A DNA stretch of 64,000 nt, from the IMG/VR virus record IMGVR_UViG_3300023720_000218; one strand, written 5' to 3'. A program made the position numbers and the translations under genes. This DNA comes from a virus. The notes under the pieces were generated by a model, which was not told where the DNA came from, did no database searches, and saw only the letters and a list, made by a program, of their open reading frames with translations. Every line of letters starts with the position of its first letter. The stretch's first letter is position 1. Positions 13,553 to 43,311 of this stretch are shown here, piece after piece.

Positions 13553-13775
13553 CGGACATTCACTTTTGTAATTTATCATTGGAAAAGCCTTAAAAACATC
13601 CATTATTGGCTCCAAAAAAGAAAAAAAAATAAAAATCTTGACCGGGATTGAAACATGCTTGGTGTCTTGGGTAGCCGGGGGGGGGTGCCCTCCCTGCTTT
13701 CATTATCCAGTTGACCGGCAAAGAAGGAGAAAAGCCGCGCTTTGCCTTGATTCTCTTTATATTATACCTATAATA

Positions 13776-14411
13776 TTAAATATTATCCGGCTTTTCCGCT
13801 TCTTCTGCTTTCCGTTTTGCTCGATCAGCTATAAAAAGGCTGCATCTATAACATTGCAAAGGCAGATAATAATGTACTGTTTCCTCTTCTTCTGTATTTT
13901 CGTCCTTCTTCATCTGTTGTAAATCGGCTATTTTCATTAATACATCCGCGCGATCTTTCCCCCTTAAATAAGGTAGGGTTTGTTCGAGACCTGATAAAAC
14001 CGCGTCTTTATCCCGATATTGTACAACATTCCCGGCTTTTTCTTCCTCTTCTGCTTCTGTGTTTTTCTTTTTCTTCTTGCTTTTGGTGCTATCATTGTCA
14101 GGAAGGAAGGCCGCGCGGTTATCTTCAAAAGATCGTATAAGCTTATTAATACCGGGTTTATCCTTTGCAAGTTGGGCGGCTCCGCGTTGCGCCGTTTCTA
14201 TTTTGGTTGATCGTGGTCTAAATATAGTTGCGTATGCTTCGCCACGACTGGCGCCGGATGCTACAAGCATACAAAAGAAAACATCATCCGGGTTTAATTG
14301 ATAAATTTGCTGTAAATCTGTTACGCGCTTACTATACACCATATAAAACGATATAAAAGGGTTTATTATATTGGCGTCTCGCGCTCTGTAACTTGCTACA
14401 AAGTTAAACAA
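13776..14411 (-). CDS. hypothetical Lys/Glu-rich protein
   Basis: 211-aa ORF at the first position of the CpG-rich module. Confidence 0.35.
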   Translation of the reverse strand: MFNFVASYRARDANIINPFISFYMVYSKRVTDLQQIYQLNPDDVFFCMLVASGASRGEAYATIFRPRSTKIETAQRGAAQLAKDKPGINKLIRSFEDNRAAFLPDNDSTKSKKKKKNTEAEEEEKAGNVVQYRDKDAVLSGLEQTLPYLRGKDRADVLMKIADLQQMKKDENTEEEETVHYYLPLQCYRCSLFIADRAKRKAEEAEKPDNI

Positions 14412-14692
14412 AGGCTATAAATAAAGCAAATAAGCATATTTAGATGTTTACATCTATAAATATTTCCTTACTTCTTAAATGCTTTATATTTATTCCCTTG
14501 TTGTTATATAATATACTGATAATCAATATATTATACAAGTATTAATAAATGCAAAAAATGGAGTGTTTCCTTAAAAATAAAGATACATTTTGTTTTGTAT
14601 TACAAATATTATTCGTATCTTTGTAATACAGAAAAGGAGATAAACGGTTAACGTCTTCCACACTTTCCCGTTTTTACTTCTTCTTTGGTTGA

Positions 14693-14956
14693 ATGTTTAA
14701 TTTAAAATATAAGATCATGGAAGTATTACTAAACTTACAAAACAAAAATGTAACGCTAAACGCCGTACATGTAGCCCCGGAGGGCACAAACTGTTGCAAC
14801 CGTTTAAAGGTTCATTTTGATGTATTTCAGGAAACAGCGAAAAAAGCCGCTATTATAAGACTATCGACGGCAAACAGTTTTGAACTGATTCACTATCAAG
14901 ATAAACATATAGCGTTATTAATACCTTTTGATCGCATTCAAAAGATTTCATACTAA
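14693..14956 (+). CDS. hypothetical protein
   Basis: 87-aa ORF preceded by the repeat CGGTTAACGTCTTCCACA (14646-14663). Confidence 0.3.
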   Translation: MFNLKYKIMEVLLNLQNKNVTLNAVHVAPEGTNCCNRLKVHFDVFQETAKKAAIIRLSTANSFELIHYQDKHIALLIPFDRIQKISY

Positions 14957-15098
14957 TAAAAAAAGCCGGATCAGTGCGTTAACTTCTCCGGCCTCCCTTT
15001 AAACTTTGCGTTTATCGGTTAACGTCTTCCACAACGTTAAATGCAAAGTTAAGGGAAAAACAAAGACAAACCAAGTTTCACCCTTTAATTTTTGCGTT

Positions 15099-15380
15099 AT
15101 GAACACAGATTTATTAATTATCTACATTCGCAATTCTCGCGATATTTACGCGCTTACTGAATGGTTGCAAAATGCACTTTTGAAAAAAGTAAACCGCGGT
15201 TTAACTCCTTCCGTTGAATATCTTGCAAACTGTTCCACTATGAAAAAGATCGTCCGGATGGCTGCAAAAATGCTTTCCGATCAGGATCATAAGACCGCAA
15301 CCAAGCAAGAAAAAGAACAAGCGGCAAGAGAACACGCGGCCTATATTATCGGATGCGTGGAATATCTTTCTAAATTCTAA
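15099..15380 (+). CDS. hypothetical protein
   Basis: Start placed at MNTDLL because the conserved upstream motif CCCTTTAATTTTTGCGTTATG abuts this ATG. The ORF track reports a longer frame from 15006. Confidence 0.35.
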   Translation: MNTDLLIIYIRNSRDIYALTEWLQNALLKKVNRGLTPSVEYLANCSTMKKIVRMAAKMLSDQDHKTATKQEKEQAAREHAAYIIGCVEYLSKF

Positions 15381-15457
15381 TAATAACTATTTTTCCGGGG
15401 CTGTCATGGCTCCGGGTTACTTCTTACTTTCATTATTCACCCTTTAAATTTTGTATT

Positions 15458-17051: not shown

Positions 17052-17192
17052 ATGGTGGGCGTAATTATTTGGCTAATAGTAGTTTTATTAATCTGCTTTA
17101 GCGTGTTTGGCGGTCTTTGGCTGCTTCCTATTTACTTGCTTTTTTGCCTTGCTTTAGGCTTTTACTTTGGTGTAAAATATCTAACTATTTAA
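17052..17192 (+). CDS. small hydrophobic two-helix membrane peptide (46 aa); a paralogue is at 61569..61709
   Basis: MVGVIIWLIVVLLICFSVFGGLWLLPIYLLFCLALGFYFGVKYLTI. It is too short for the ORF track. The second copy is MLGVLVWIVVILLICFSVFGGPCLLPLYVLFVVVVGFYFGVKYLDI. Confidence 0.4.
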   Translation: MVGVIIWLIVVLLICFSVFGGLWLLPIYLLFCLALGFYFGVKYLTI

Positions 17193-17196
17193 TGTT

Positions 17197-18894: not shown

Positions 18895-18933
18895 CCATTT
18901 CAAACGAATTATTACATATATCAATGAATCATT

Positions 18934-19618: not shown

Positions 19619-19625
19619 CATAATT

Positions 19626-19883: not shown

Positions 19884-19911
19884 TATTTATTGAACCAAAT
19901 ATTTAATTGAT

Positions 19912-21168: not shown

Positions 21169-21170
21169 AA

Positions 21171-21989: not shown

Positions 21990-21994
21990 AACAA

Positions 21995-24596: not shown

Positions 24597-25371
24597 ACTT
24601 CGTAAATTAAGTAGTATATTTGCATCCGTAATAGTAGCAGTATTACCACATAAATTGATTAAACATCCTATTTGGAGTTTATATATAGAAATCCGTAAAT
24701 AGCTGCTACCTATTTGCGGATTTTCTTTTTCTCCACATTGTGTAATCGGCGGTAGGCCGCATAGCGGAGAGACAGAGGGTTACACTCTTACAACTCAATA
24801 CTGCGAAGGGCGTGCGATATTGAGAGGCAAACGAAACCGGGATGCCTGCACAGCTACAAGTAAGCGAAAAATCCGGGAAGTCGGGTAACTTGTTAATGCC
24901 CGGCCAGCTAAGAACGGCGTACTTATACGAACGAGACATTTCTTATGCTGCATATAGCAAAAACGGGAAACCGTCTAAGGGCTAACTATGCAGCAATCCA
25001 GCACCTTACCGAATGAGATCGTCTTTTACTTCTTCAATTATTACAATACTAATAGAACGACATTACTTTTTTTCAGAAAGCTTTCTTTTTACGCAAACCT
25101 CACTTGTATAACATTTTATAAACCAACAATTTACATTAAAACATGTTTTATAACATACGAAATACTACAAATTTTAAGAAGTATTTTATTGTACTTCTGA
25201 AAATATGAAGTATATTTGCAACGTCAAACAAACAAAGAGTGTAAGTTTGAACAACAAGAAAGCTGGCGACTTCAAAAGCCACTTACTACATATCTCATTG
25301 GCAAATGTAGTTGTTAGCTTTCTTTTATGCAAATTTTTTGTGGAAAATTTAAGTATAAAATAGAAAATAAT

Positions 25372-28854: not shown

Positions 28855-29074
28855 TGGATTCATGTGAAAAAATTAGTAACAGTATCACAGCGGCTAAAGA
28901 ACTGATCGAAAATGAAACACGTTCTTTGGCTGCTTTACATAAAGCAAAACAGCTTGAAAAAGAGCTTCATAAATCCGGCAAGTTGTTTCGTATTCCTACA
29001 ATGAACGGAATTATAGAAACAACCTGCCCGGAAAAATACATAGAATACAATAACCAGTTTAAAATCAAATTAAA

Positions 29075-29689
29075 ATGAGAACAGTAACAGTTGAAGTGCC
29101 CGAAGGACACATGGTAAAAATCGTGAAAGAAGAAAGTATGCAACCTACTCAAAAAGTTACGGGGGGGGGTAAATTTGAATTTGAGGGTGAGACATTCATC
29201 CCCGGTGACGTAATTATCAATCCGAATCGCGGAGGGGGCAGCATGATGATTCTCTCTGAAATTAGAGAAGAAAGGCCACTCTCTTTTTTACCGGCAATTA
29301 AAGTACCTTTCGGCCTTGTCGCCTATGTTCCTTCCAATGATGAAGGTGACAGAGTTTTTGTAAGACTCACACCCGAAGCTGGTATCGGAGGCATGAAGGG
29401 ATTCCGTAAAGCTACGGAAGAGGAAAAGGCAAAGATGCTTGCCGCCATGAAGGAAGAAAAACATTACTCCTTCAATTTTGAGAAGTTACAGCCTGAATAT
29501 ATCCCGACTGTCGGCGATGTTGTTATTGTATGGGATGATAATAGCAAAGAAAATGCGGTAGTCGGTGTTATGAATGAAATGGATAAAACAGTCAGGCCAT
29601 ACAAGATAAATGATGGTACTTGGTATGGGAACTGCGACAAGTTCGTTTCAGAAGAACAATATAAAAATTTGATTGATGGGAAAGAGTAA
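29075..29689 (+). CDS. hypothetical protein containing an in-frame G9 tract (codons ACG GGG GGG GGT)
   Basis: 204-aa ORF. The 9-G run at 29161-29169 encodes TGGGK. Confidence 0.4.
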   Translation: MRTVTVEVPEGHMVKIVKEESMQPTQKVTGGGKFEFEGETFIPGDVIINPNRGGGSMMILSEIREERPLSFLPAIKVPFGLVAYVPSNDEGDRVFVRLTPEAGIGGMKGFRKATEEEKAKMLAAMKEEKHYSFNFEKLQPEYIPTVGDVVIVWDDNSKENAVVGVMNEMDKTVRPYKINDGTWYGNCDKFVSEEQYKNLIDGKE

Positions 29690-29745
29690 ATCTAAATCGG
29701 GGGGGGCGAGAAATTACACTCCCCTTCTCACAGCTCGCCCAAAGG

Positions 29746-29975
29746 GAATGAGCTACCAAGAATATCGTGAACGCAGAGCCTATCAGAACGCATGGTTGAA
29801 AGAGCGACTGAAAGGCTTTATTTGTTATGTATCGTCTGAACTGGTTGTATATGACAAAATAACGGGATTACCCCGATTATTCAATCATCGTACAGATGAT
29901 ATACACAAAGCAAACATAAGGACTAACCCACAGCCATTTGTCGGTTCTGCCCGATATGGCTTAAAACCTTTATGA
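29746..29975 (+). CDS. hypothetical small protein
   Basis: Start placed at MSYQEY. The ORF track begins at 29673, which is inside the preceding gene and would include the G8 tract at 29699-29706. Confidence 0.25.
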
Positions 29976-29976
29976 T

Positions 29977-30405
29977 ATGGATAAAGAACTATTTAAAGAT
30001 AAGAATCCATTGCTTCGCAGACAAATGTTGGAAGACAATTGCGCAGCAGTTGAAAGAATTACCTATACTTCTCCTTTCAGCGAGGAAGAAATGGGTGAAC
30101 GGAAAACGGAGTTGGCAAATATTGACCTTGACATGGCCGCACTGGAAGAAGAAAAGAAAGCTTTCATGCAAGCATACAAGGACAAACTGAAACCTAAAAA
30201 GGAACGTAAAAAAACGTTGCTTACCGATATAAAACGTGGTTATGAGGAAATTACGGATGAATGCTTTAAGTTTATGGATCGTAGCACCCGTACCACCGGA
30301 TATTACAATGGTAATGGCGATTTGGTTAAAGAACGTCCGATGGAGGCACAAGAGATGCAAAAAACGGTCTTCGAGGACATTGAATCTACTGGTACGGAGG
30401 GATAA
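29977..30405 (+). CDS. hypothetical acidic coiled-coil protein
   Basis: 142-aa ORF. Confidence 0.35.
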   Translation: MDKELFKDKNPLLRRQMLEDNCAAVERITYTSPFSEEEMGERKTELANIDLDMAALEEEKKAFMQAYKDKLKPKKERKKTLLTDIKRGYEEITDECFKFMDRSTRTTGYYNGNGDLVKERPMEAQEMQKTVFEDIESTGTEG

Positions 30406-30408
30406 GCC

Positions 30409-30687
30409 ATGAGAAAAGAAGAACTTATCAAGCAAGTAGCCGAATCAACCGGTATTGCTATTTGCGAAGTCCGAACAGTTATAGAAGCAGCATTGAAGGA
30501 AACCGTGGATGCAGTAGCTAATGGAAGAACTCTTTATATCAGAGGTTTTGGTACACTGTCACCCAAACACTATAAACGAAAAGTTGCTCGTAACATACAC
30601 AAAAACGAGACTATTGTCATAGCGGAGCATTATACTCCACACTTCAAACCAGCCAAATCATTTAAAAACAGAACTAAAAATTTGTAG
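30409..30687 (+). CDS. HU/IHF-family DNA-binding protein
   Basis: 92 aa. MRKEELIKQVAESTGI…GFGTLSPKHYKRKVARN… matches the HU fold signature (the GFGxF arm region). Confidence 0.7.
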   Translation: MRKEELIKQVAESTGIAICEVRTVIEAALKETVDAVANGRTLYIRGFGTLSPKHYKRKVARNIHKNETIVIAEHYTPHFKPAKSFKNRTKNL

Positions 30688-30693
30688 AACAAC

Positions 30694-31437
30694 ATGGAAA
30701 ACGAAAAGATGCAAGTGAACTTTGCTCCGGGTGTGACCGAAGCAACCCTTAGAGTTATTGAACTTCACGAAGAAAATGAGTTACCGGTACTGGAGCCTGA
30801 TAAGGTAGAATTAGCCGGAACAATTGGAAGTGTTCATGAATTTCTCTTGAAAAGAATCTCTGAAAAAGAACAGATCAATCAGAAACGTTGCTATATTCTT
30901 GTTGATCGGGAGAAAATGACACTTAAACTTGTCACCAATGAAACTGACAGTAGGAATAAAGCTACTGTAAGAGGTGAGTTGAAATACTATCCCAAGTTTC
31001 TTGAATTTGGTATTAACACAAGCAAGACATGGGAACCGGTGCAGCTTTCAAAGTTCTTCAAAATGAATCGTGCCTTCTTCAAGGATGCACAATACAACAT
31101 GGAACTGGTAACAGTCTTGAAGAACTTCAAAGCCAGCATTGACTCAAAAGTGGAAAACTCCCGACAAGACAACGGTAGTCGCACTGACAATTACAGCCAA
31201 GTTGTCAACTCCAATCTTCCGGCCTCATTCAATCTTATTGTCCCGATTTTCAAAGGTCGCCCTGCAGAAGAGATTGAAGTGGAAATCATTGCAGATGTGG
31301 ACGGGCGTAATATTCGATTGTCCCTTTGCTCCCCTGGTGCAGAAGTGATAGTGGAAGAGGAACGCAACAAGGCCATTGACGAGCAATTATTGTTGATCCG
31401 TAAATTGGCACCGGATATTGCCATTATCGAACAATAA
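30694..31437 (+). CDS. hypothetical protein
   Basis: 247-aa ORF. Confidence 0.35.
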   Translation: MENEKMQVNFAPGVTEATLRVIELHEENELPVLEPDKVELAGTIGSVHEFLLKRISEKEQINQKRCYILVDREKMTLKLVTNETDSRNKATVRGELKYYPKFLEFGINTSKTWEPVQLSKFFKMNRAFFKDAQYNMELVTVLKNFKASIDSKVENSRQDNGSRTDNYSQVVNSNLPASFNLIVPIFKGRPAEEIEVEIIADVDGRNIRLSLCSPGAEVIVEEERNKAIDEQLLLIRKLAPDIAIIEQ

Positions 31438-31598
31438 CAATGAAGACTGTAAAGAAATACTGGAAGCCGGTACTTGTCGTATCGGCTTTCTTCATTGGCA
31501 ACCGCGTATTCAATCACATAAATGCGTGGTTGGGAATTTCAATAATTATGCTGACAGTAGCATTTATAGTTTATAATATCATTAAAAAAAAGTAGAAA

Positions 31599-32408
31599 AT
31601 GAAAAGAAAGATTGATTTTTTGATTGTGGCACTATTTGCCGTTGTTTTGTTTGCTTCATGCGAAAGAGTTGCTCCCAATTATGCCGGTGTCCTTATGGAG
31701 AACTACGGCAAACAAGGGAAAGAAGATTTTAAAATCGTTGCCGGTAAGGTATCTACATGGGAATTAGGCACAGAGCTTTTTCAAGTTCCGCTATTCGATC
31801 AGCGCGGAGAATTTTCTGATCCAGTCACACTAAAGGCAGCCGACAATACAGAGTTTACAGCCCGGCCAACTTACTCTTATAAAGTAATGAAAAACAGGGC
31901 TATTGATATTGTATTTGATAACAAGCATATTGATAAGGCTGACACCCCATCGGGAAAAGATGGCTTTATGCAATCATTAGAAGATAATATTTTGGAGCCA
32001 CGTATATATGATCTTATCAAAGAAGAAAGTCGCAAACATAAAACAGACAGTCTGATGGCTGACGGTGGTTCATTGGTATTTGAAAAGAGACTGGAACAGA
32101 TCGTTGATAAAGAATTTGAGAAACGGGGATTGCAGTTGTTGACCTTCTCCGCACAATTGGAATTTTCAAGAGCTGTCCGCGATAAAATAGATAGCCGTAA
32201 CGAGGTAAACACTAATATTTCGGTACTTGATCAGAAGATTGAAGAACAAAAGAAGCAAAACGAACTGGAGCAACTAAAAACAGAACAAGCTTTAATTGCG
32301 TCCCGTGGACTCACCCGTGAGATTTTATATAAACAATTTATAGACAAGTGGGACGGGAAGACACCTCTATATGGCATTGCTCCTGAATTTTTAAAAATGA
32401 CAAAATAA
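31599..32408 (+). CDS. SPFH/band-7 (prohibitin/stomatin-like) domain lipoprotein
   Basis: Signal peptide with lipobox (…VVLFASC), followed by an SPFH-like core and a C-terminal coiled coil (…QKIEEQKKQNELEQLKTEQALIASRG…). Confidence 0.5.
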   Translation: MKRKIDFLIVALFAVVLFASCERVAPNYAGVLMENYGKQGKEDFKIVAGKVSTWELGTELFQVPLFDQRGEFSDPVTLKAADNTEFTARPTYSYKVMKNRAIDIVFDNKHIDKADTPSGKDGFMQSLEDNILEPRIYDLIKEESRKHKTDSLMADGGSLVFEKRLEQIVDKEFEKRGLQLLTFSAQLEFSRAVRDKIDSRNEVNTNISVLDQKIEEQKKQNELEQLKTEQALIASRGLTREILYKQFIDKWDGKTPLYGIAPEFLKMTK

Positions 32409-33156
32409 TATGCTGACATTTCAACAAAGAAGAGATACGATATTGTCTCAATTTGCACAAGCAAAAGCCGATTTGGAAACACTTAATAGTGATATTGATG
32501 CAGAAATCGAAAAGAATAAATCTGTTATTTCTACACTAACTTCTAAAAATACAGAATTGGCCTCTTTAAAAAGTAATAATGAAGGCTCAATCAAGACTTT
32601 TGCTAAATTCCTAAAATAATAATTATCAACCCGATTAATAATCAGCTTCTCCCGGTGTGGCTTGACCGCCTATCCGGGAACTATCATGCCTCACCTTTTT
32701 TCTTCTCTTTGCAAGTCGAGCCGAGTACGCTGCATACGCTCCACGGCGGTAGATACTACAAAGAGTCTTTTTGTTCATATAAGAATGCCTCTATTGTGGA
32801 GGCAAACGAATAAGTGGCGGAATTGGAAGACGCTTAGTTTCTGTGGTAAAAATGCACGAATAGCATCACGAGTCAGGTAATCATGCTATTAACACTTGAC
32901 ATACGTACAAACGGAAGCAGAAACGAAAATCCTGATTGCAACAGTTCCCGGTTCGAGTCCGGGCTTATTCTCATAAATCAATCATTATGAAAGTTGAAAT
33001 TCCCGACTATTTCTTAAAATCCTTTATCCGACATTTTGAAAGGATAACCGAGAATTGTAAAGCATCACCTTCTGACATCAAGACCAGTGAAGCACTAAGA
33101 CTTGGAAAGAAAGATATAGTTAAGCTCAAAAGATTTGTAAACAAAAAGTATAATTT

Positions 33157-33612
33157 ATGAAACGAAGGATCATAGGTATAGATGTTGGCAAAAACGGTGG
33201 AATTGTAGTGTACGACACCGAGAATAACAGATTATTGGAGTGTATCAAAATGCCACCAACTCCCAAAGACTTATTAGATTTTCTCTCTATATACAAAGAA
33301 AATAGCGTTTGTTATTTGGAACGAGTGAATGGCATGACCGGACAAAGTGCTTCTGCCTCTTTTGTTTTTGGAGAAGGTTACGGACAGCTGACTATGGGAT
33401 TGATAGCTTGTGGGATTCCGACAGTAACAGTATCTCCACAAACTTGGCAAAAAACTTTAGGATTACGAAATACAGACAAATTGGGTAAGACAGAATGGAA
33501 AAACATCTTAAAGAAGAAAGCCCAACAGCTGTTTCCGTATGCAAAAGTTACATTGGCAACTTCGGATGCCTTACTAATATGTGAATATGGTAGAATTAAA
33601 GAAAATGAATAA
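33157..33612 (+). CDS. RuvC-like Holliday-junction resolvase
   Basis: N-terminal IIGIDVGKNGGIVV (the RuvC/YqgF motif with the first catalytic Asp). 151 aa. Confidence 0.55.
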   Translation: MKRRIIGIDVGKNGGIVVYDTENNRLLECIKMPPTPKDLLDFLSIYKENSVCYLERVNGMTGQSASASFVFGEGYGQLTMGLIACGIPTVTVSPQTWQKTLGLRNTDKLGKTEWKNILKKKAQQLFPYAKVTLATSDALLICEYGRIKENE

Positions 33613-33769
33613 TGGAAAATTTAAAAAAATGCAGCAAATGTGGCCGAGAACTTCCGGTCAGTGAGTTTTGGAGAAATGCTTCAACCGAAGATGGATTGCA
33701 GACATACTGCAAAGAGTGTGGTAATATTTATGCCAAAAACCGTAAGAAAACTCCGGGGGGGGTAATTTG
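33611..33769 (+). CDS. zinc-ribbon protein truncated at a G8 tract (+1 G would extend it to about 92 aa, ending near 33887)
   Basis: MENLKKCSKCGRELPVSEFWRNASTEDGLQTYCKECGNIYAKNRKKTPGGVI*. The G run at 33754-33761 precedes TAATTTGA; with 9 G's the frame stays open to 33887. Confidence 0.4.
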
Positions 33770-33886
33770 AAGAAAATATATTCCAATTCTGAATTGGCAA
33801 GATTTTCTCCACGGGAACTTATCACAGAATTGAAAGCACGTGGATATACCGGAGAATTGAAATACACTCAAACAATATCATTATAA

Positions 33887-34423
33887 ATGGAAAAGTTACG
33901 TCTATTGGTTACAACCAAATGTCCGAACAAATGTCCTATGTGTTGCAACAACTCATGGGATTTTTCAAAATTACCAGTTGTTGAGCACTTTAATTACAAA
34001 GAGATCATGATAACTGGTGGAGAACCACTTTTGTTTCCTGAAAAACTGTCAAATTTGGCCGAAAGTATCAGAACCGTTCAGAAATTGGCCTATGGCAATA
34101 AAGGAAAATTATTTCTATATACGGCACTGGCTGATATGCTTCCCAATTATATCAGATATTTCGATGGAGTTGTTTACACTCCACATTCTGCTAATGATGT
34201 TCATAGTTTATTAAAGGCCAATAATTTTTTGTTGGACTACAAAGATGAACTTATGGAAAGTAAATCTCTTCGACTCAATCTTTTTCCTGATATTAAAAAG
34301 CATATTCCTGACAACACAGACCTTTCGTTATGGAAAGTAAAAGATATGCAATGGATCAAAGATTGCCCGGTTCCGACTGATGAAGAGTTCAAAAGAGTAG
34401 CTGAATTATGGGAGGTGGAATGA
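33887..34423 (+). CDS. radical-SAM activating enzyme (NrdG-like; QueE-like not excluded)
   Basis: CX3CX2C cluster (TTKCPNKCPMCC) and a glycine-rich SAM motif (ITGGEPLLFPE). 178 aa, as for anaerobic RNR activases. Confidence 0.5.
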   Translation: MEKLRLLVTTKCPNKCPMCCNNSWDFSKLPVVEHFNYKEIMITGGEPLLFPEKLSNLAESIRTVQKLAYGNKGKLFLYTALADMLPNYIRYFDGVVYTPHSANDVHSLLKANNFLLDYKDELMESKSLRLNLFPDIKKHIPDNTDLSLWKVKDMQWIKDCPVPTDEEFKRVAELWEVE

Positions 34424-35508
34424 TGAAAGATGTAATTACCCCCCCCCAACATCTCTATCCTTATTGCTGGTCTTTAGAAGATGCTGTTTTTACTAAAGAT
34501 AAAGGAAAGGTGTTTTCTTGTTTTGCATGTGGCGGTGGCTCTACTATGGGTTACAAAATAGCTGGTTACGATGTTATTGGCTGTAATGAGATTGATCCAC
34601 GAATGATGAAATGCTATGAAACAAACCATCATCCCCAGTATAGTTATTTGGAAGATATTCGTGATTTTGTGAGAAGGAAAAATCTTCCCGAAGAATTGTA
34701 CAAATTAGATATATTGGACGGATCACCACCTTGCAGTACATTTAGCATGTCGGGATTACGTGAAGATGCGTGGGGTAAAGAAAAGAAATTCAAGGAAGGT
34801 CAAAAGACACAAGTTTTAGACACGCTCTTTTTTGATTTTATTGCACTTGCCAAACGCTTAAAACCTAAAGTCGTTATTGCTGAAAATGTGAAAGGTCTTC
34901 TTTTAGGGAATGCGATTGATTATGTCAGACGTATATACAAAGACTTTGAGGAAGCTGGTTATTATTGTCAGCATTTTCTTCTTGATGCTTCTAAAATGGG
35001 AGTACCTCAAAAAAGAGAACGTGTATTCTTTATATGTATCAGGCATGATTTGGGAGTCCATTTTCTAAAAGTTTCAGACCTCTTCAATGTTGAACCATAC
35101 ATCGACATGGAATTTAATGAATCGGAAATATATTATGGGGAATATGCGGATTACAAGGGAAAGCCTATTGGCGTAAAAATGAGAAAGTTATTTGAGCAGA
35201 GAGTGGCAGGAGATATTGCTTTGGCAGAGGCCTATAAGAAACAAACTGGAAAACGAGGCTTTTTTAATCAACAATATCTATATGAGAACAAAGTAAGCTA
35301 CACCCTAACAACTCATGCAGACTCAATTATTCCTTTTAAGCAGCCTATATATTTATCACGGTCAGAAGTATGTAATATATCCACATTTCCACAAGATTAT
35401 CATTTCCTCAACCAATCCCCACATTATATCTGTGGAATGAGTGTACCACCCGTTATGATGGCACAAGTAGCCTCACGAGTATGGAAATATTGGTTATCTA
35501 AATTATAA
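34408..35508 (+). CDS. DNA (cytosine-5)-methyltransferase with a C9 tract 10 codons into the ORF
   Basis: Motif I FSCFACGGGSTMGY, motif IV GSPPCSTFS and motif VI ENVKGL. The poly-C at 34439-34447 encodes TPPQ. The likely start is the ATG at 34420, preceded by GGGAGGTGG. Confidence 0.75.
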   Translation: MGGGMMKDVITPPQHLYPYCWSLEDAVFTKDKGKVFSCFACGGGSTMGYKIAGYDVIGCNEIDPRMMKCYETNHHPQYSYLEDIRDFVRRKNLPEELYKLDILDGSPPCSTFSMSGLREDAWGKEKKFKEGQKTQVLDTLFFDFIALAKRLKPKVVIAENVKGLLLGNAIDYVRRIYKDFEEAGYYCQHFLLDASKMGVPQKRERVFFICIRHDLGVHFLKVSDLFNVEPYIDMEFNESEIYYGEYADYKGKPIGVKMRKLFEQRVAGDIALAEAYKKQTGKRGFFNQQYLYENKVSYTLTTHADSIIPFKQPIYLSRSEVCNISTFPQDYHFLNQSPHYICGMSVPPVMMAQVASRVWKYWLSKL

Positions 35509-35513
35509 ATCAA

Positions 35514-35933
35514 ATGAAATCAGAAGAATTAGCAGCCCAATGGTGTCGGGATCATCCTGATGCAACATTGGAACAAGCATTCATGGCCGGATTAGGCCAT
35601 AAGATGAATATGAATAAGGATTCTCTTTCTGCAAGGAAAGACAAATTCAGAAGTGAAGTCCTCATGTATAGAGGGAAATATCCTGATGATATGTTGAAGG
35701 ACTTTTTCGAGTATTGGACTGAATGCGGAGGACGGAAAATGCGCTTTGAGAAGGAACGTACATTTGAAGTTTCCAAACGTTTAGTCAGATGGTCTAATAA
35801 TGATTTTAACAAGTATGGGAAACAACTTAATTCAAGTCAACAGCAATCTCCCGGCAACCGAAAAGAAAGCGTTGAAAGACTTGCTGACCTTGCAAGCGGA
35901 GTATTACAAGGGATTGCACGTAAGTTCGATTAA
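35514..35933 (+). CDS. hypothetical protein
   Basis: 139-aa ORF. Confidence 0.3.
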   Translation: MKSEELAAQWCRDHPDATLEQAFMAGLGHKMNMNKDSLSARKDKFRSEVLMYRGKYPDDMLKDFFEYWTECGGRKMRFEKERTFEVSKRLVRWSNNDFNKYGKQLNSSQQQSPGNRKESVERLADLASGVLQGIARKFD

Positions 35934-36483
35934 AGAAGCTGTTCTCAACACTCCTAACCTACCACTCTCCGTTATAAGAAAAGAAATCACATTGGCTGGC
36001 GCAAGAGCCATACTGGTAATTGCGATTAACGAGCTTGTGTCTTTTTTCAATGTTGGAAAAACGATGAATGATGTTCAAGTGGCACTTACCGCTGATCTAA
36101 TAATAGACAGATTCTATTATCTCAAATTGGAGGAAATCAAATTATGTTTCCGTAATGCTATGGCTTCCGGTAAGATTTACGATAGACTGGACGGTAATAT
36201 CATTCTCGGCTGGTTAAATGAATACGATGCACAGCGTGATGAAATTGTTTCTTCTCTTTCAATTAATGAAGCCCATGAACAAAATAATAACAGCACTGGA
36301 ATGTTCTACGGAGAATATATCAAACATCTAACTGAAAGATCGGAAAATGGAGATGAAGAGGCCAAAGAATTATTGGAATCCCATCAATCATTCATACAAA
36401 GGATGAAATCAAATGATAAAGAAGCCGCTTTCAAAAAATGGAAAGAAGAATATTATGGAAGAACTAAGAGACAAACTACTTGA
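35800..36483 (+). CDS. hypothetical protein (start uncertain; overlaps the preceding ORF)
   Basis: 227-aa ORF. Confidence 0.3.
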   Translation: MILTSMGNNLIQVNSNLPATEKKALKDLLTLQAEYYKGLHVSSIKEAVLNTPNLPLSVIRKEITLAGARAILVIAINELVSFFNVGKTMNDVQVALTADLIIDRFYYLKLEEIKLCFRNAMASGKIYDRLDGNIILGWLNEYDAQRDEIVSSLSINEAHEQNNNSTGMFYGEYIKHLTERSENGDEEAKELLESHQSFIQRMKSNDKEAAFKKWKEEYYGRTKRQTT

Positions 36484-37165
36484 CTGGGCGAAACAATTTG
36501 AAACACCTGATTTTATAAAAGATGATCCTATATTTTTTCCACATAAGTACAATGATAAAAAGGACATAGAAATCAGTGCTTTTCTTACTTCATGGATAGC
36601 TTTCGGGAATCGCAAACTGATAATGCAGCAAGCAGAAATTTTGGATAATCTAATGGGTAATTCTCCTTATGCCTTCATTATGAACAAAGTATGGGAACAA
36701 TACAAAGAAAATACAAATACCTTCTACCGTATGTTCACCTACCATGACTTCTTCTGCATTTGCCAGCGGTTGTACAACATATATCAGGAATGGGATGATT
36801 TGGAAGTATTTTATGAGGGTTACAACAATGTTATCCGTGAAATACAAACAGATTTTGGTGGCGTAAAAGGTATTCCAAAATTGGAGCGTGATTCTCCATG
36901 CAAGCGTATTTGTCTGTTTCTACGGTGGGTAGTACGAAAATCGCCGGTGGATTTAGGTATTTGGAATATTATTCACCCGACAGAATTATACATACCATTG
37001 GATGCACATGTTGCAAAAATGGCACACCAGCTTGGGATAACAACACGCAAAACAGAGGACTGGAAAATGGTTCAACAAGTAACCAATTACATGAAAACAA
37101 TTTTCCCGGATGATCCGTGCCGGGGAGATTTTGCATTATTCGGATATAGTATTAACAATAAATAA
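36413..37165 (+). CDS. hypothetical protein
   Basis: 250-aa ORF. No motif recognised with confidence. Confidence 0.35.
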   Translation: MIKKPLSKNGKKNIMEELRDKLLDWAKQFETPDFIKDDPIFFPHKYNDKKDIEISAFLTSWIAFGNRKLIMQQAEILDNLMGNSPYAFIMNKVWEQYKENTNTFYRMFTYHDFFCICQRLYNIYQEWDDLEVFYEGYNNVIREIQTDFGGVKGIPKLERDSPCKRICLFLRWVVRKSPVDLGIWNIIHPTELYIPLDAHVAKMAHQLGITTRKTEDWKMVQQVTNYMKTIFPDDPCRGDFALFGYSINNK

Positions 37166-37173
37166 TTTACATT

Positions 37174-37758
37174 ATGTCAGAACTTAAAATCACACAAGAA
37201 AAGGTAACAGCCGCTTTTAGTGAAGCAAACGACTGTCCTAAAGCAATTAGTATTCTAACAGCCCTATTCGGAAAGCAAAAGCCGGATTATACAGATTATC
37301 ACAATATTAAAACCTACGAAGATGCTTGTGAAGCAATAGGTGTAAAACCTATTGTTCGCCTACTTGTTGAGGATGAAGACGGACACAAAGAAGAAGTGGC
37401 TGATATTGCACACCTCGCCTACATCAAACTATGCACAATTGCTCGTGCATTGAACAACGATCCTGATTTTCCACGATTTACTAAAGATGAATACCGTTAT
37501 ACGCCGTGGTTTTATCTTTATAATCAGAAAGAAATTGATGAAATGGACGAAGAGGATCGTAATCAGCTGGTTCTTTGGGGCGGTGGTGCGTCTGACGGTG
37601 CGTCTTGCGGCCTCGCTTGTGCGCACTCGTGTAACGCTTGGTCGAACCCGACTGCGTATCTCGGCTCTCGCCTTGCTGTAAAATCAAGTGAAATCGCAAT
37701 TTACTTTGGAGAACAATTCAAAGAATTGTGGAAAGACTTTCTGATTGGAAAAAAGTAA
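37174..37758 (+). CDS. remote DGR target protein (C-terminal variable region)
   Basis: C-terminal …LVLWGGGASDGASCGLACAHSCNAWSNPTAYLGSRLA… is encoded by VR2 (37565-37676). VR2 matches the template repeat except at template adenines. Confidence 0.6.
   Translation: MSELKITQEKVTAAFSEANDCPKAISILTALFGKQKPDYTDYHNIKTYEDACEAIGVKPIVRLLVEDEDGHKEEVADIAHLAYIKLCTIARALNNDPDFPRFTKDEYRYTPWFYLYNQKEIDEMDEEDRNQLVLWGGGASDGASCGLACAHSCNAWSNPTAYLGSRLAVKSSEIAIYFGEQFKELWKDFLIGKK
37565..37676 (+). repeat. DGR variable repeat 2 (VR2)
   Basis: Its reverse complement aligns to the TR (53899-54006) over about 110 nt. There are about 17 mismatches at TR-adenine positions and 1 at a non-A position. The 3' end GGCTCTCGCCTTGC is shared with VR1 (IMH-like) and differs from the TR's …GCCATAC. 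Confidence 0.7.
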
Positions 37759-37770
37759 TCACACTGGGGA

Positions 37771-37794
37771 GGCCGCATCAAAGCGGCCTTTTCC
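37771..37794 (+). terminator. rho-independent terminator
   Basis: GGCCGC-ATCAAA-GCGGCC followed by TTTTCC, directly after the VR2-bearing gene. Confidence 0.5.
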
Positions 37795-37992
37795 ATACCT
37801 TTTAAATCTATGACTCCAAAAGAATTTTTCGACAAAGTGGTGGAAATGCGCCGTTGCCAAAAAGAATATTTAAAAAATAAGAGACAGATAGATTTACGAA
37901 TAAGTAAACAAATTGAGCGTGAAGTAGATGAAGAAATTGAACGTGTTCAAAAAATCCTTCACGACAAACAGAATCCGCAACTCTTTTAGACT

Positions 37993-38409
37993 ATGGTTAA
38001 TATGAAAATCCTTGACCTGCCATTAAAAGCAAAATGGTATGAAATGATCGAATCCGGAAATAAGAAAGAAGAATACAGAGAGATCAAGAAATACTGGATC
38101 GGAAGATTAGCAAAATGTGGAGGTCGCAATTCCTATGAAAAGACAGGTTTCTATTGTAAGAAAGGTATTTGTTTTTCTTGTATTACACGTGGAAACGGCT
38201 TTCACCCCAAAGAATACACTCATGTTCGCTTCCGTTTTGGCTACACCAAACGGACAATGCTTTTTGAACTTGAATCTATAACCATCGGAGTTGGTAACAC
38301 CAATTGGGGAGCACCGGATAACGAATGTGTATTTATACTTAAACTGGGAAAATGTATCAAAAAAAATGAAAGTAAGGACTCAACAGAATTTCAACCGAAA
38401 AACTCGTGA
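37993..38409 (+). CDS. hypothetical protein (possible ASCH/PUA-like fold)
   Basis: 138 aa. The N-terminal pattern LPLKAKWYEMIESGNKKEEYREI is reminiscent of ASCH domains; this is weak. Confidence 0.25.
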   Translation: MVNMKILDLPLKAKWYEMIESGNKKEEYREIKKYWIGRLAKCGGRNSYEKTGFYCKKGICFSCITRGNGFHPKEYTHVRFRFGYTKRTMLFELESITIGVGNTNWGAPDNECVFILKLGKCIKKNESKDSTEFQPKNS

Positions 38410-38622
38410 AACAGTATTCGGTATCAGCATCATGCCTGACGGTGGCAGAAGATATTGTAAATACCCAATAGGCCACCAAGAATACAAAGACTATACCCAA
38501 GCACACCAAGCTATGAAAGATGTACAAAAGATATTGGATAATGGAGGCCGATTAGTGTATTCTCCCAAAGGTAGTGCCGGGATTAATAAAAATGAATATG
38601 TAAAAATTGAAATGACATAAAA

Positions 38623-39472
38623 ATGAAAATATTAGTAAGTTTTTCAGGTGGTAAGGATTCACAAGCATGTTTGATCCAAGCCTTCAAACAATATGGGGGG
38701 GGATTTAATCGCTGTGTTTTGTGACACCGGCTGGGAACACCCTGACACATATAAACATGTGAATGATGTTTGTCTGCAAATGGGAGTAAGACTTATAACT
38801 CTCAAATCAAAATACGATTTTGTGTCTTTGGCAGTTCACAAGAAAAGATTTCCTTCCACGAATGCACGGTTTTGTACCAGTGAACTAAAAATGAAGCCAA
38901 TGATTGATTATGTACTTTCTTTGAAAGAAAGCTGCATTATTATACAAGGTATCAGAGCCGGAGAAAGTACAGCACGTGCGGCAATGGAAGAGGAATGTAT
39001 GTACTTCAAATCGTATTTTCAACCTAATAAGAAAGGAAGAACTGAAAACTACCGAAGTAAGGATGTCAAAGAATGGTGTTCCCAATTTGACGCTTCTGTT
39101 CTAAGACCGATCTTCAAATGGAGTGCACAGCAAGTTATAGATTGCATACTGGATGCAGGGCAGAAACCGAATCCATTGTATTATCGTGGATTCTCACGTG
39201 TTGGATGTTTCCCGTGTATCATGTGTCGGCATAAAGAAATTGAACTTATAGCCAAAAATGATCCTGAAATGTGTCAACGTCTGATTCAAGCAGAGAAAAA
39301 CGTGGGACATTCCTTCTTTCCTCCATCATACATACCTCAAAGATTCTGTAAAAACAAACAATATCCTTATGTAGAGGAAGTTTTGGAGTACGTTAAAGAA
39401 CATACCCCTGATATGTTCGAGCCGGAAAGTGGATATGCCTGCATGAGCCTGTTTCATGGACTATGCGAATAA
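38623..39472 (+). CDS. PAPS-reductase-family / PP-loop ATP pyrophosphatase-like protein, split by a frameshift at a G8 tract
   Basis: The ATG at 38623 gives MKILVSFSGGKDSQACLIQAFKQYGGG… (SGGKDS PP-loop) and stops at 38724. The tract-downstream frame (38693..39472; its N-terminal part up to 38724 overlaps the first frame) continues …DLIAVFCDTGWEHPDTY…. Removing one G from the run at 38695-38702 fuses them into a protein of about 282 aa. Confidence 0.55.
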
Positions 39473-39620
39473 ATAAAAATATTATGAAGAAAATACTACT
39501 TATCTTTACACTCCTTGTTTTGTTAACTGGATGTACTGCACCAAGAGTTTATAAAAAGAACCGCTTCACAAAACAGTTTCAAGAAGCAGATTCAATGTTT
39601 ACTCAAAAACATTTATTAGA

Positions 39621-40073
39621 ATGAAGACATTAGACGAAAAGGCTGCCGAATATGCAGCAGGGGTTGTAGCTGAGTTCCCTGAACTTGCAAGCTACAAAGG
39701 AACTATTGAAACCATTTACGGACAAGGGGCAATGGAATGTGAATTACTTGGAGAAGAAACGGGAACCTTTGGGCAAGCACTTGAATCTCTCAAACGAGGG
39801 CATCTCGTTACTCGTAAAGGATGGAACGGTAAGGGTATGTTCATATTCATGCGTCCTGAAGATTGTTTATCAACGGAAAAGGTTGTTAATCATGTTAAAT
39901 CACTTCCCGAATCATTCAAAAAATGGATAGCCAACAATTATGGAGATTCGGAAATTGATAAAATCAAATTTACTGCATACTTATGTATGAAAGCTGCCGA
40001 TGGCACCGTTGTAAATGGTTGGCTTGCATCACAGACAGATATGCTTGCTAACGATTGGATGATAGTTAAATAA
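39621..40073 (+). CDS. DUF2829-like protein (possible Tad2-type anti-Thoeris sponge homologue)
   Basis: …FGQALESLKRGHLVTRKGWNGKGMFIFM… and a C-terminal …NGWLASQTDMLANDWMIV resemble the DUF2829 signature (G-W-N-G-K-G…D-W). Recalled from memory. Confidence 0.35.
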   Translation: MKTLDEKAAEYAAGVVAEFPELASYKGTIETIYGQGAMECELLGEETGTFGQALESLKRGHLVTRKGWNGKGMFIFMRPEDCLSTEKVVNHVKSLPESFKKWIANNYGDSEIDKIKFTAYLCMKAADGTVVNGWLASQTDMLANDWMIVK

Positions 40074-40603
40074 GTGTATGTCATACGGCTGTTAAATGTC
40101 TGCCGTATGACGCATTCTATACAATTATAAAGCAAACGACTAAGTTATGAAATGTGAAGAGCACGTAGATAAAGGAAAAACAAGAATAAGAGGCTGGCAC
40201 AATTTTACTCCATGTAAAAATACTGCTAAATACAAAGTTACATACCCAAGTGGCAATGTTCTATTTTTATGTGGAGTCCATTATAATAGATTGAAAAGAC
40301 TTGGATATAACGTTAAAGCCGAAGAAATCAGAAAATAATATTAGTAGAAAAATCTTTATATTACTTCCATATATTCAAAATCATGTATGAAGGATTAAAA
40401 ATAAATTTCAGACTATGGCATATTGTAGGCGGTATTTACGAATACAAAACATTGATAAGACTTCCTCGAAAGCAAAAGAAAGCATTAAAGAAAAGTCTTT
40501 TGCAGGATATTTTTACGATTGATAGGAACTACCTAAAAGAGTGCCCAAAGCCTAAAAAAATGCCAATATTTAGTTATAAACAAGAATAAAAAGGATATAA
40601 ATA

Positions 40604-41272
40604 ATGCCGATAAGCGAAGTATATAACATGGACTGTATGGAATACATGAAGGGGATTCCTGATAAGTTCTTTGATTTAGCGATAGTCGATCCCCAGTATG
40701 GCATAGACATAATGCACAAGGGTGGGATGCCGAAGCATTTAGGCTTTAAGCAGTATAAACGCAAGGATTGGGACAAGAAACCACCTGGCAAAAGATATTT
40801 TCAGGAGTTATTTAGAGTGAGTAAGAATCAAATAATTTTCGGTGGCAACTATTTTACTCAACATCTGCCTCCTAAAATGGGTTGGATCGTCTGGGATAAG
40901 GGGCAACATGGACTAACAATGTCTGACGGAGAATTGGCATGGAGTAGTTTTGACAAAGCTCTTCGGATCATAACTCTAAACCGGTGTACAATTGGAGAAC
41001 GAGGTGGAAATATCCATCGTTGTCAGAAGCCAGTGAAATTATATGCTGAAATATTAAGAAAAAACGCCAAAGAGGGAGACAAAATTTTTGATAGTCATTT
41101 AGGTTCAGGAAGTAGCAGAATAGCTGCTTATGGACTTGGATTCGATTTCTATGCAACTGAAATAGATGAAGAATACTTTGAAGCACAAGAAGAACGTTTT
41201 CACCGGGAATGTTTTGGGGAGATAAAAACAGAGAGAGGAACGTTGGTTCAAACTAATTTATTTGATAAATAG
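40604..41272 (+). CDS. DNA N6-adenine / N4-cytosine methyltransferase (N-4/N-6 methylase family)
   Basis: Motif IV DPQY (LAIVDPQYG) and motif I FDSHLGSGSS. 222 aa. Confidence 0.65.
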   Translation: MPISEVYNMDCMEYMKGIPDKFFDLAIVDPQYGIDIMHKGGMPKHLGFKQYKRKDWDKKPPGKRYFQELFRVSKNQIIFGGNYFTQHLPPKMGWIVWDKGQHGLTMSDGELAWSSFDKALRIITLNRCTIGERGGNIHRCQKPVKLYAEILRKNAKEGDKIFDSHLGSGSSRIAAYGLGFDFYATEIDEEYFEAQEERFHRECFGEIKTERGTLVQTNLFDK

Positions 41273-41669
41273 ATATGAAACAGACAGTAGAAGAAGCGGC
41301 AAAGGAAGCAAGGATGACAAGTGCCGAAACATTAACTACTTATGGCACACACACGTCACTTGATGATTTTACATATTTATCTCATGATGAAATTGCAGAA
41401 TCTGCATTTATAAAAGGTGCTGACTGGCAGTCAAAGCAATCACCTTGGATAAGCGTGAAGGGACAGTTGCCGGATGAAAATGAAGACATCATCATTCTAT
41501 GTAAACATGGTGCGATTTTTAACGGCACATATAGCAACAATGTATGGTTCTGCATGGATGGTTATATCTATGACACGTACAAAGGTAACCCAATTTACTC
41601 TTCAATGAGCAGCATACCTCCGTCATGGGAACCGATAGCATGGATGCCAAAACCTAAATTTGAAGAATA

Positions 41670-42587
41670 ATGAATATTGGAATTTTAGCCGTTGATAGCA
41701 ATTTCCCCAATTTAGCACTTATGAAGATCAGTGCTTACCACAAAGCAAGAGGCGATCAAGTGGAATGGTATAATCCACTATGTAAATATGATAAAGTATA
41801 TGCAGCTAAAGTTTTCACTTTCACACCCGACTATAACTATTATATCAATGCTAACCAAATAGAAAAAGGTGGTACTGGATATGATATTGAAAAAGTTCTT
41901 CCAATTGAGGTTGATCGTCTTCAACCTGATTACTCGATCTACAATATTGACTCCAATTTGTCCTATGGGTTTCTGACACGTGGGTGTCCCAATCGGTGTA
42001 AATGGTGGGTTGTTCCTAAAAAAGAAGGAAAAATCTCACCTTATATGGATATTGAGGAAATAACAGCCGGACGGAAGAAAGCTATCCTTATGGATAATAA
42101 TATACTGGCCTCAAACTATGGCTTGCAGCAAATAGAGAAAATCATCAAACTGGGTATCAAAGTGGATTTTAATCAAGGACTGGATGCTCGTTTAATCACG
42201 GATGAAATCGCTCGGCTACTTGCAAAAGTAAAATGGATTAAACGTATTCGCTTTGGATGCGATACACCGGGACAGATTGCAGAAGTTGAACGTGCTTCCG
42301 CTTTAATAGACAAGTATGGATATAAAGGGGAATATTTCTTGTATTGCATCCTTATGGACTTTGAAGAATCGTTTGCGCGCGTCAACTACTGGAAATCTAA
42401 AAGCCGCCGTTTTCTTCCACATTGTCAACCCTTTCGTGATCTGAACAATCCACACCAAATTATTCCACAGTGGCAGAAAGACATGGCACATTGGGCTGAT
42501 AGGAAGGAAATATACATGAGTTGCGACTTCAAAGACTTTTCACCAAGAAAAGGTTTTTTATGTAAGGAATACTTTAAAATATTGTGA
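41670..42587 (+). CDS. hypothetical protein
   Basis: 305-aa ORF containing a TRGCPNRC segment. No firm family was assigned. Confidence 0.35.
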   Translation: MNIGILAVDSNFPNLALMKISAYHKARGDQVEWYNPLCKYDKVYAAKVFTFTPDYNYYINANQIEKGGTGYDIEKVLPIEVDRLQPDYSIYNIDSNLSYGFLTRGCPNRCKWWVVPKKEGKISPYMDIEEITAGRKKAILMDNNILASNYGLQQIEKIIKLGIKVDFNQGLDARLITDEIARLLAKVKWIKRIRFGCDTPGQIAEVERASALIDKYGYKGEYFLYCILMDFEESFARVNYWKSKSRRFLPHCQPFRDLNNPHQIIPQWQKDMAHWADRKEIYMSCDFKDFSPRKGFLCKEYFKIL

Positions 42588-42821
42588 GATGAAATTAAAC
42601 AAAAAGACAGAGCGACTTATTAAACGTAGAGCCGCTGAATTTAAAAAATTATATGAAACTCCTAATCCCGAAGTAGATAAAATTATTTCTGAATTGAGAG
42701 CAGAAGCAACGAAACGTCCACAGAACATGAGTAAGGAAGAAGAAATTGCTTATATTCTGAAAAAGGCTGATGAAAATTGCGATCATATAGAAATTCGTAA
42801 AATCCTAAATGTAAGTAATAC

Positions 42822-43311
42822 ATGAATACATCTTTTGAACGATCTGCAAACGCTTCCGATGAATGGTACACACCACGAGAAATCATTGAAGCATTAGGTG
42901 AATTTGACCTTGATCCATGTGCTCCCATGCACCCTCTTTGGCCTACCGCAAAAATCATGTACAACAAGCAGGACAATGGTCTTATACAAAATTGGGGGGC
43001 GAATTTGGCTTAACCCTCCGTACTCCAAACCGCTTATATGGCAGTTTGTAGAGAAATTGGCAGAACACGGCAACGGTATAGCACTACTTTTTAACCGGTG
43101 TGACAGCAATAAGTTTCAAGACATCATCTTCACGAAAGCAACCGGTATGATGTTTTTGAGGAATCGAATAAAATTCTTCCGTCCCGATGGAACACGTGGG
43201 GACAGCCCCGGTTGCGGTAGTGTTCTTATTGCATTTGGCCGGGAAAATGCCGAAATTTTAAGGAACTGCTCTTTACAAGGCAAATATGTTGAACTTAACA
43301 ATGATAAATGA
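42822..43311 (+). CDS. phage Dam-family DNA N6-adenine methyltransferase, split by a frameshift at a G6 tract
   Basis: Frame A (42822..43013) has SDEWYTPREIIEALGEFDLDPCAP. Frame B (to 43311) has IWLNPPYSKP. One G fewer at 42994-42999 gives the contiguous …LIQNWGRIWLNPPYS…. Confidence 0.55.

Follow-up and report, generated by a model that had tools for sequence, protein, structure and literature searches.

Length-variable G/C homopolymer tracts as probable reversible switches of early genes in a LoVEphage-type temperate phage

This study concerns seven G/C homopolymer tracts in a 64,000-nucleotide (nt) stretch of viral DNA (IMG/VR record IMGVR_UViG_3300023720_000218), referred to below as the window. 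A megablast search of positions 28000-44000 against GenBank phages returned six records with 96.7-99% identity: Bacteroides phage LoVEphage (MW660583, OY731433, OY731444, OY725593), Bacteroides phage BI-TP1 (host B. intestinalis) and Phocaeicola phage PV4-TP1 (host P. vulgatus). On the basis of these matches, we assign the window to a LoVEphage-type temperate phage of Bacteroides/Phocaeicola. LoVEphage is among the commonest temperate phages of the human gut. It has been reported in ~8% of gut viromes, with B. thetaiotaomicron, P. dorei and P. vulgatus as hosts (PMC12629997), and the records of its relatives name B. intestinalis, P. vulgatus and B. acidifaciens as hosts. The tracts are located in the long plus-strand early/accessory arm, for which the annotations of the relatives list Exo/RecT, HU, a Holliday-junction resolvase, radical-SAM proteins, methyltransferases and RtcB. 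Tract 1 is non-coding and lies upstream of primase/helicase genes.

The other six tracts lie inside open reading frames (ORFs) at Gly-Gly-Gly or Pro-Pro codons, so that a change of one base alters the reading frame. The genes (g2 to g7) are numbered after their tracts, all are read from the plus strand, and a length that keeps the gene in frame is called ON. Tract 2 is a G9 at 29161-29169 that encodes Gly-Gly-Gly at codons 30-32 of g2 (29075-29689; 204 amino acids; ON in the window). Tract 3, a G8 at 29699-29706, had been placed between genes by an earlier sequence-only reading of this DNA; it occupies codons 8-11 of g3 (29676-29975; 99 amino acids; ON), an ORF annotated in the same way in BI-TP1 and PV4-TP1, whose start at ATG 29676 overlaps the g2 stop. 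Neither g2 nor g3 matched a family, and Pfam, PHROGs and NCBIfam searches gave no function for either. The AlphaFold model of g2 had a predicted local distance difference test (pLDDT) score of 42, too poor for a fold search.

Tract 4 is a G8 in g4, a zinc-ribbon gene that is OFF in the window and truncated at 33770. The tract spans 33755-33762, one base away from the position given by the sequence-only reading, which had located the other six exactly. When repaired, g4 (33612-33886) encodes 91 amino acids with an N-terminal zinc ribbon, a linker containing the tract and a small helical C-terminal part. Its PHROG matches (endonuclease VII, HNH and Lar-like families) mostly reflect the zinc ribbon, and the best of them was phrog_1035, endonuclease VII, over residues 4-79. 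The tract falls in a low-confidence linker of the AlphaFold model, whose pLDDT of 60 was too poor for a fold search.

Three tracts lie in genes of recognizable enzyme families. Tract 5, a C9 at 34439-34447, encodes Thr-Pro-Pro-Gln at codons 11-14 of g5 (34408-35508), a C5-cytosine DNA methyltransferase of 366 amino acids (PF00145 DNA_methylase, residues 34-357); it lies upstream of motif I (FACGGG), and the gene is ON. Tract 6, a G8 at 38695-38702, occupies codons 25-27 of g6 and is OFF; repaired g6 (38623-39472) encodes a PAPS-reductase-like PP-loop protein of 283 amino acids (PF01507, residues 3-200, matched end to end). The tract separates the upstream SGGKDS PP-loop from the remainder of the protein. 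Tract 7 is a G6 at 42994-42999 (G7-G9 in relatives), codons 58-60 of g7, just 5' of the NPPY motif, and is also OFF; repaired g7 (42822-43311) encodes a Dam-like N6-adenine methyltransferase of 163 amino acids (PF05869, residues 10-129). Once repaired in length, the g5, g6 and g7 proteins gave continuous Pfam matches (DNA_methylase, PAPS_reduct and Dam) across the tract. The frame breaks that the sequence-only reading had described in the zinc-ribbon, PAPS-reductase-like and Dam genes are present in the window, but the C5-methyltransferase is in frame there.

The sequence-only reading had called this genome AT-rich and its long G/C runs non-random, and both statements hold. At a G+C content of 39.0%, the G/C runs of the window show a bimodal length distribution: 17 runs of 5 nt, three of 6 nt, none of 7 nt, three of 8 nt and three of 9 nt. 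The six runs of at least 8 nt compare with 0.22 expected (maximum 4) from 2000 mononucleotide shuffles, and with analytic expectations of 0.04-0.47 from Markov models of orders 1-5 trained with the tracts masked (P(≥6) ≤ 1e-5), an excess of more than tenfold. A/T runs of at least 8 nt (five observed) were close to a rough composition-based estimate of about seven, which confines the excess to the G/C tracts. The single G/C run of at least 6 nt in the window's structural arm is an invariant C6, and the structural arm of the complete phage PV4-TP1 (24 kb outside locus L003) has none. In this genome GGG makes up 13% of Gly codons and CCC 15% of Pro codons, less than any of their synonyms, so protein sequence does not account for the runs. 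The preponderance of G on coding strands that the same reading had noted has no statistical meaning (five G versus one C in the window, and five versus two with an additional tract of the relatives).

Tract lengths were compared across six GenBank relatives, 41 IMG/VR loci anchored on the resolvase gene, 30 IMG/VR loci with tract 1, six GTDB loci (five LoVEphage-like, including the isolate Bacteroides acidifaciens DSM 15896) and 73 ENA gut-metagenome contigs with tract 4; some overlap between the databases is possible. As a quality filter, we scored coding indels that lay outside long homopolymers, which left 103 clean loci. In the six GenBank relatives, tract positions were identical and flanks nearly so, lengths ranged from 6 to 11, and two C6 control runs, at 27968 and 59316, were invariant. 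Across more than 100 independent assemblies, the seven tracts kept their positions and changed their lengths, with a spread of 4-9 nt at the coding tracts and of G7-G10 at the non-coding tract 1. The relatives' GenBank annotations alternate accordingly between whole and split tract genes.

All three frames were found at every coding tract, and occupancy differed from gene to gene. The g2 tract ranged from G7 to G10 and was ON (length 9) in 22 of 29 clean loci (frames ON/+1/+2, 22/4/3). At g3, with G7-G12, lengths 8 and 11 are ON, which applied to 20 of 32 loci (20/6/6). The g4 tract had net lengths of 6-14, including an interrupted allele GGGAG7-10, and was ON in 35% (n = 79; 28/22/29). The g5 tract ranged from C6 to C12, with or without a 6-nt ATACAC insert, and was ON in 41% (n = 74; 30/15/29); in OFF genomes the start codon annotated for g5 lies downstream of motif I, so the OFF product should be inactive. 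The g7 tract (G6-9) is ON as G8, found in eight of 19 loci (8/5/6).

The g6 tract (net length 8-11 in the clean set) was ON in 22% (n = 27; 6/14/7). An ATG abuts this tract (caatATGGGGGGGG, window 38692-38702), and its frame, at net lengths 8 and 11, is that of the g6 portion without the PP-loop. This class was the commonest, at 14 of 27 clean loci, without reaching significance. It could represent a third state in which a truncated protein is made.

Among the 18 loci that cover at least five coding tracts, 15 distinct ON/OFF combinations occurred. Length changes outpaced substitutions by far. LoVEphage contig pairs with 0-3 single-nucleotide polymorphisms (SNPs) in 4.5-5 kb already had unequal tract lengths, for instance L009/L020 (0 SNPs, net g4 length 13 versus 12) and L001/L011 (0 SNPs, 14 versus 13). 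The share of unequal tract comparisons was 0.30 at <0.1% divergence and ~0.7-0.75 at all greater divergences; this early plateau indicates that tract length is randomised well before 0.5% divergence. The single frame-restoring length that, according to the sequence-only reading, would point to assembly error was not found at the level of assembled genomes: near-identical genomes differ, and all three frames are occupied. Five of ~60 mapped locus ends fell within tracts (four in G/C tracts, one in an A8 run), at most a weak and indirect hint of reversible switching within a clonal population.

The length calls themselves proved reproducible. Length spectra were unchanged after error-prone assemblies were dropped (103 loci), and SPAdes-style contigs at 22-484x coverage still differed in tract length. 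Among control homopolymers, the G/C runs of 5-6 nt and four of the five 7-nt A/T runs kept one length throughout, with no more than a single deviating locus per run. Two pairs of separate records, OY731444/OY725593 and L029/L030, had zero SNPs over ~18.7 kb and the same length at all six coding tracts, which argues against random noise. The tracts were also present in the isolate genome of B. acidifaciens DSM 15896 and in induced phage isolates. Individual calls could still be wrong by one base in places.

The tract genes are working rather than decaying. With the tract set to the ON length, the ORFs of g2, g4, g6 and g7 were full length in nearly all loci; the integrity check covered these four genes, and the intactness of g3 and g5 rests on the absence of stop-codon variants. 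No stop-codon variant was found in the six tract genes among distinct codon variants across loci. The ratio of nonsynonymous to synonymous polymorphism (pN/pS; variants treated as independent) was 0.06-0.28 in tract genes and 0.03-0.22 in eight tract-free neighbouring genes. In-frame GG/GGG/GGGG variants occur among g2 homologues. Some database homologues (P0019, P0023) show apparent compensated double frameshifts in the region of window 29161-29240, which may be real or may be assembly noise: a first shift at the G tract or at CCCCGG (~29205) is undone 10-15 codons further on, at CCCCGG or at a G5 (29234).

More distant relatives show both retention and loss of the tracts. A lineage of ~80% nucleotide identity, reached via the g2 homologue P0047, has a third-position identity of 0.61-0.65 and keeps pure G-runs at g2, g4 and g6, with unequal lengths among four contigs; it has no tract at the g3 position. 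The tracts occur at identical positions in all LoVEphage relatives examined and three persist at ~80% identity, as the sequence-only reading would have required. In a sister lineage of 88-91% identity most tracts are missing: the g2 tract is removed by a 21-nt deletion, g3 carries an in-frame non-repeat allele (AGGGGAGT), g4 is absent, and the g4-g7 genes as a group are absent or replaced. The g5 cassette boundary in this lineage coincides with the C tract. It is also just 15 nt past the stop of the upstream gene, and we regard it as an ordinary mosaic junction. A shared G-run plus AATTTG after three of the tracts was likewise rejected as a binding or recombination site, as it reflects only local codons (Gly-Gly-Gly and Lys/Asn/Glu, then Phe/Leu).

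A further tract occurs in relatives, in a third methyltransferase gene of N6/N4 type with a DPQY motif (40604-41272, plus strand). The window and BI-TP1 carry a non-repeat, "locked ON" allele, AAGAAACCACCTGGC (AAG AAA CCA CCT GGC), at 40775-40789 on the plus strand. Eleven relatives have a C7-C9 tract instead, of which C8 is ON (three of 11) and C7 or C9 OFF, and this tract allele lies in a divergent recombination patch of ~240 nt. Both locked alleles checked for frame, those of g3 and of the third methyltransferase, are ON. A proto-tract, AGGGAGGG, is found at 47248-47255 on the plus strand in ORF 46725-47390; one relative has GGGGAGGG at this site and PV4-TP1 a full G8. We read these alleles as the birth of a tract by point substitution at constant length.

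The non-coding tract 1 (G9, 13677-13685, plus strand) is flanked by two minus-strand genes and lies upstream of the primase/helicase operon. Among 29 clean loci, G8 occurred in 12 and G9 in 13. In a small hairpin (G-run / TGC / CCCTCCC), the tract provides the 5' arm; it is ~125 nt from iteron-like direct and inverted copies of AAACTATACAT / ATGTATAGTT at 13288-13552, upstream of the same operon, a region that is probably an origin or operator. A sigma-70 promoter scan round the tract gave background levels, and no Bacteroides -7/-33 promoter motif was seen there by eye. A 101-nt fold at tract 1 was no better than that of shuffled sequences (z = -0.42), so no RNA element is claimed, and Rfam at the gathering threshold gave no match at any tract.

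Several other features of these genomes were recorded. Rfam and ARAGORN identified eight tRNA genes (Tyr, Ser, Glu, Gln, Trp, Asn, Phe, Met) on the minus strand at window 4339-5181, and no RNA gene in the window beyond this array. Two RNA annotations in the accessory arms of relatives appear doubtful: a barrnap call of a "5S ribosomal RNA" in OY731433 (L004 28571-28676) and a two-piece "tRNA-His" in MW660583 (L001 21308-21510). The structural arm of PV4-TP1 has an annotated transposase gene of the IS256 family (L157 12946-14160). The A8 run at 38359 is located at the 3' end of an ASCH-domain gene, directly 5' of the ATG of the next gene, and an A7 allele there would fuse the two ORFs into a 208-amino acid protein. 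The A run at 31584 closely precedes the start of a band-7 gene.

The ~80%-identical relatives L159-L162 have four differing left flanks (positions 1-4400) directly by the repressor gene, which contain an Mfa-like gene, integrases, an outer-membrane-protein gene and mutS. The differing flanks suggest several integration sites, and mutS in one of them implies a mismatch-repair-proficient host.

The phage also carries a diversity-generating retroelement (DGR). Two 118-nt repeats on the minus strand (window 53889-54006 and 54176-54293) are 89% identical, and all mismatches fall at adenines of the 53889 copy, which identifies this copy as the template repeat. The variable repeat lies at the 3' end of a tail-fibre/Mtd-like gene, and a reverse transcriptase is annotated adjacent to it in relatives. 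The G/C tracts and the DGR are thus two separate hypervariation systems in one phage.

We propose that the tracts serve this LoVEphage-type temperate phage as simple-sequence contingency loci, a reading to which we give a probability of about 70%. It is argued from the excess of the tracts, their conserved positions, their hypervariable lengths, the switching of frames and purifying selection on the rest of each gene. As in contingency loci, the repeats lie within ORFs in six of seven cases and exceed expectation, their length changes far faster than substitutions accumulate, each change toggles an intact against a truncated frame, and both the function of the gene and the repeat itself are kept by selection. 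Slipped-strand phase variation of DNA-modification genes, as suggested by the sequence-only reading, is hence supported at the level of assembled genomes. The tracts most likely act as reversible on/off switches of a kind not previously described for LoVEphage. The terms homopolymer, polyG, frameshift and phase variation were not found in the two main published descriptions of this phage (including PMC12629997), and full-text literature searches returned no report of such tracts in Bacteroides phages.

In the proposed mechanism, G/C homopolymers of ~8-10 nt would gain or lose bases during DNA replication through slipped-strand mispairing. Each step of one base would shift an accessory early gene between the intact frame and two truncated ones, and further slippage within a lineage would presumably reverse it. 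The genes switched in this way would be the C5-methyltransferase, the Dam-like methyltransferase, the PAPS-reductase-like enzyme, the zinc-ribbon protein and two genes without assigned function, together with the third methyltransferase in relatives. A phage population would then contain many ON/OFF mixes of accessory genes. The benefit is likely to be anti-defence bet-hedging, in which methylation would guard against restriction-modification and at the same time expose the DNA to modification-dependent defences; we base this idea on an analogy with the T2 gene agt, described below, and on the several hosts of LoVEphage.

Several observations weigh against this interpretation. The frames of g4, g5 and g6 are about equally frequent, a pattern that fits either intermittent selection or indifference to length. 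MutS in a host flank indicates mismatch repair in the host, so switching rates may be below those of Campylobacter. A "DNA-modification arsenal" fits only part of the set, since g2 and g3 have no assigned function and g6, like g4, is assigned at family level. Three A/T runs of 7-8 nt also vary in clean relatives (T6-9 at 25067-25073, A6-9 at 31584-31591 and A6-9 at 38359-38366), so a variable length is not by itself peculiar to G/C tracts. Finally, a few metagenome contigs are visibly error-prone, with many short-homopolymer deletions in L110.

The alternative that survives best, which we nonetheless consider unlikely, is that RNA polymerase or the ribosome slips on the runs and some full-length protein is made from any length. 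Length variation in the DNA would then be nearly neutral, and the tracts would tune expression level rather than act as heritable switches. Transcriptional slippage does rescue frameshifted homopolymers in some endosymbionts and insertion sequences, and the near-uniform frames of g4, g5 and g6 despite purifying selection are what this explanation predicts. However, the intact frame is enriched in g2 (76%) and g3 (62%) and both locked alleles checked are ON, which indicates that the DNA frame matters for at least some genes. Genomic lengths here also roam over all frames, unlike known programmed sites, which have a fixed length. Transcriptional slippage may still act as an additional layer on top of contingency switching.

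It is rather improbable that the runs are non-adaptive hotspots, accidents of Gly/Pro-rich linkers whose frameshifts are tolerated in decaying or irrelevant genes. OFF frames are indeed common (24-78%), and the tract genes are all accessory and missing or replaced in the sister lineage. Decay is countered by the lack of stop-codon variants, by pN/pS values resembling those of neighbouring genes and by the intact repaired ORFs. Accident is countered by the excess over composition, by the use of the rarest codons in runs that nevertheless stay pure at ~80% identity and by the exchange of tract and locked alleles through recombination.

That homopolymer miscalls in sequencing or assembly fake the length differences and frame breaks, a possibility the sequence-only reading wished to see excluded first, is very unlikely as the main cause: L110, several contigs at only 1-3x coverage and the variable A8 and T7 runs speak for it, but length variation holds in the 103 indel-checked loci and in high-coverage contigs, spreads of 4-9 nt at single tracts exceed one-base miscalls, control runs stay constant, zero-SNP records agree, isolates carry the tracts, and miscalling cannot create the tracts themselves.

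Contingency tracts of this kind have counterparts in other phages. In the lytic Campylobacter phages, whose host has no mismatch repair, polyG tracts are found in receptor-binding or structural genes. The hypermutability of these polyG tracts was described by Sorensen et al. (2021, Cell Rep 35:109214), as cited in PMC12823448. As in our proposal, length changes of in-gene polyG tracts there create ON/OFF variants and a phenotypically mixed phage population. The phage described here differs in being temperate, in its Bacteroidota host with MutS in a host flank and in having no tract in the structural arm. Its targets are early accessory genes, including three methyltransferases, and receptor variation is provided by the separate DGR.

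In T-even phages, polymerase slippage on homopolymers reversibly inactivates genes (Gomez, Barrick & Waters 2025 preprint, PMC12633550). The best-studied case is the DNA-modification gene agt of T2, whose poly-A switch is under opposing selection by defences that depend on the modification and defences that are sensitive to it (the TgvAB defence system and McrA/BC restriction). T-even tracts in general are poly-A runs of at least 6 nt, whose frequency is roughly what composition permits and which occur in genes of every class (PMC12633550). We propose the same logic of opposing selection for the methyltransferases studied here. In contrast to the T-even tracts, those of LoVEphage are few G/C runs of at least 8 nt, in more than tenfold excess, in the rarest codons and in one arm only, and the evidence for their switching is comparative rather than experimental.

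Phasevarions are based on chromosomal Type III mod genes (Haemophilus, Neisseria, Helicobacter), whose switching re-programmes host expression. The common element is a simple-sequence repeat inside a DNA methyltransferase ORF, found at sequence level in the C5 (PF00145) and Dam-like (PF05869) genes and, in relatives, in the N6/N4-type gene. A phasevarion would also require that methylation switching alters the expression of a set of genes together, and the system is not classed as one. The genes here are orphan phage methyltransferases, and guarding of phage DNA is a more likely role for them than regulation. Programmed transcriptional slippage sites (Thermus dnaX, IS elements) keep one length in the genome, with the frame corrected in the RNA, and most of them are A/T runs. 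They share with our tracts a homopolymer at the frame junction between two parts of one protein; the genomic lengths found here, which vary over three frames at every coding tract, set the tracts apart from this class. The kind of element is therefore known from other phages. The system described here differs in its Bacteroidota setting, its temperate phage, its mismatch-repair-proficient host, its methyltransferase and early-gene targets and its coexistence with a DGR.

A more tentative proposal, which we put at somewhat below even odds, is a combinatorial system of epigenetic bet-hedging, in which seven or eight selection-maintained tracts turn three orphan methyltransferases and several further early genes on and off, each independently and reversibly. 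If so, the progeny of each burst would differ in DNA-modification state and, together with the DGR-varied tail protein, this could explain the unusually broad host range within Bacteroides/Phocaeicola. Bacteroidota are otherwise known for phase variation by invertases, and this would be their first system of the kind.

Should the tracts prove to be heritable switches, the methylation pattern of a LoVEphage and its sensitivity to restriction and to modification-dependent defences would be properties of a population mixture rather than fixed traits. Methyltransferases annotated as "split" or "truncated" in gut phage catalogues would then be states, not pseudogenes. Slipped-strand contingency loci would also be seen to work in elements of Bacteroidota, beside invertible promoters and DGRs.

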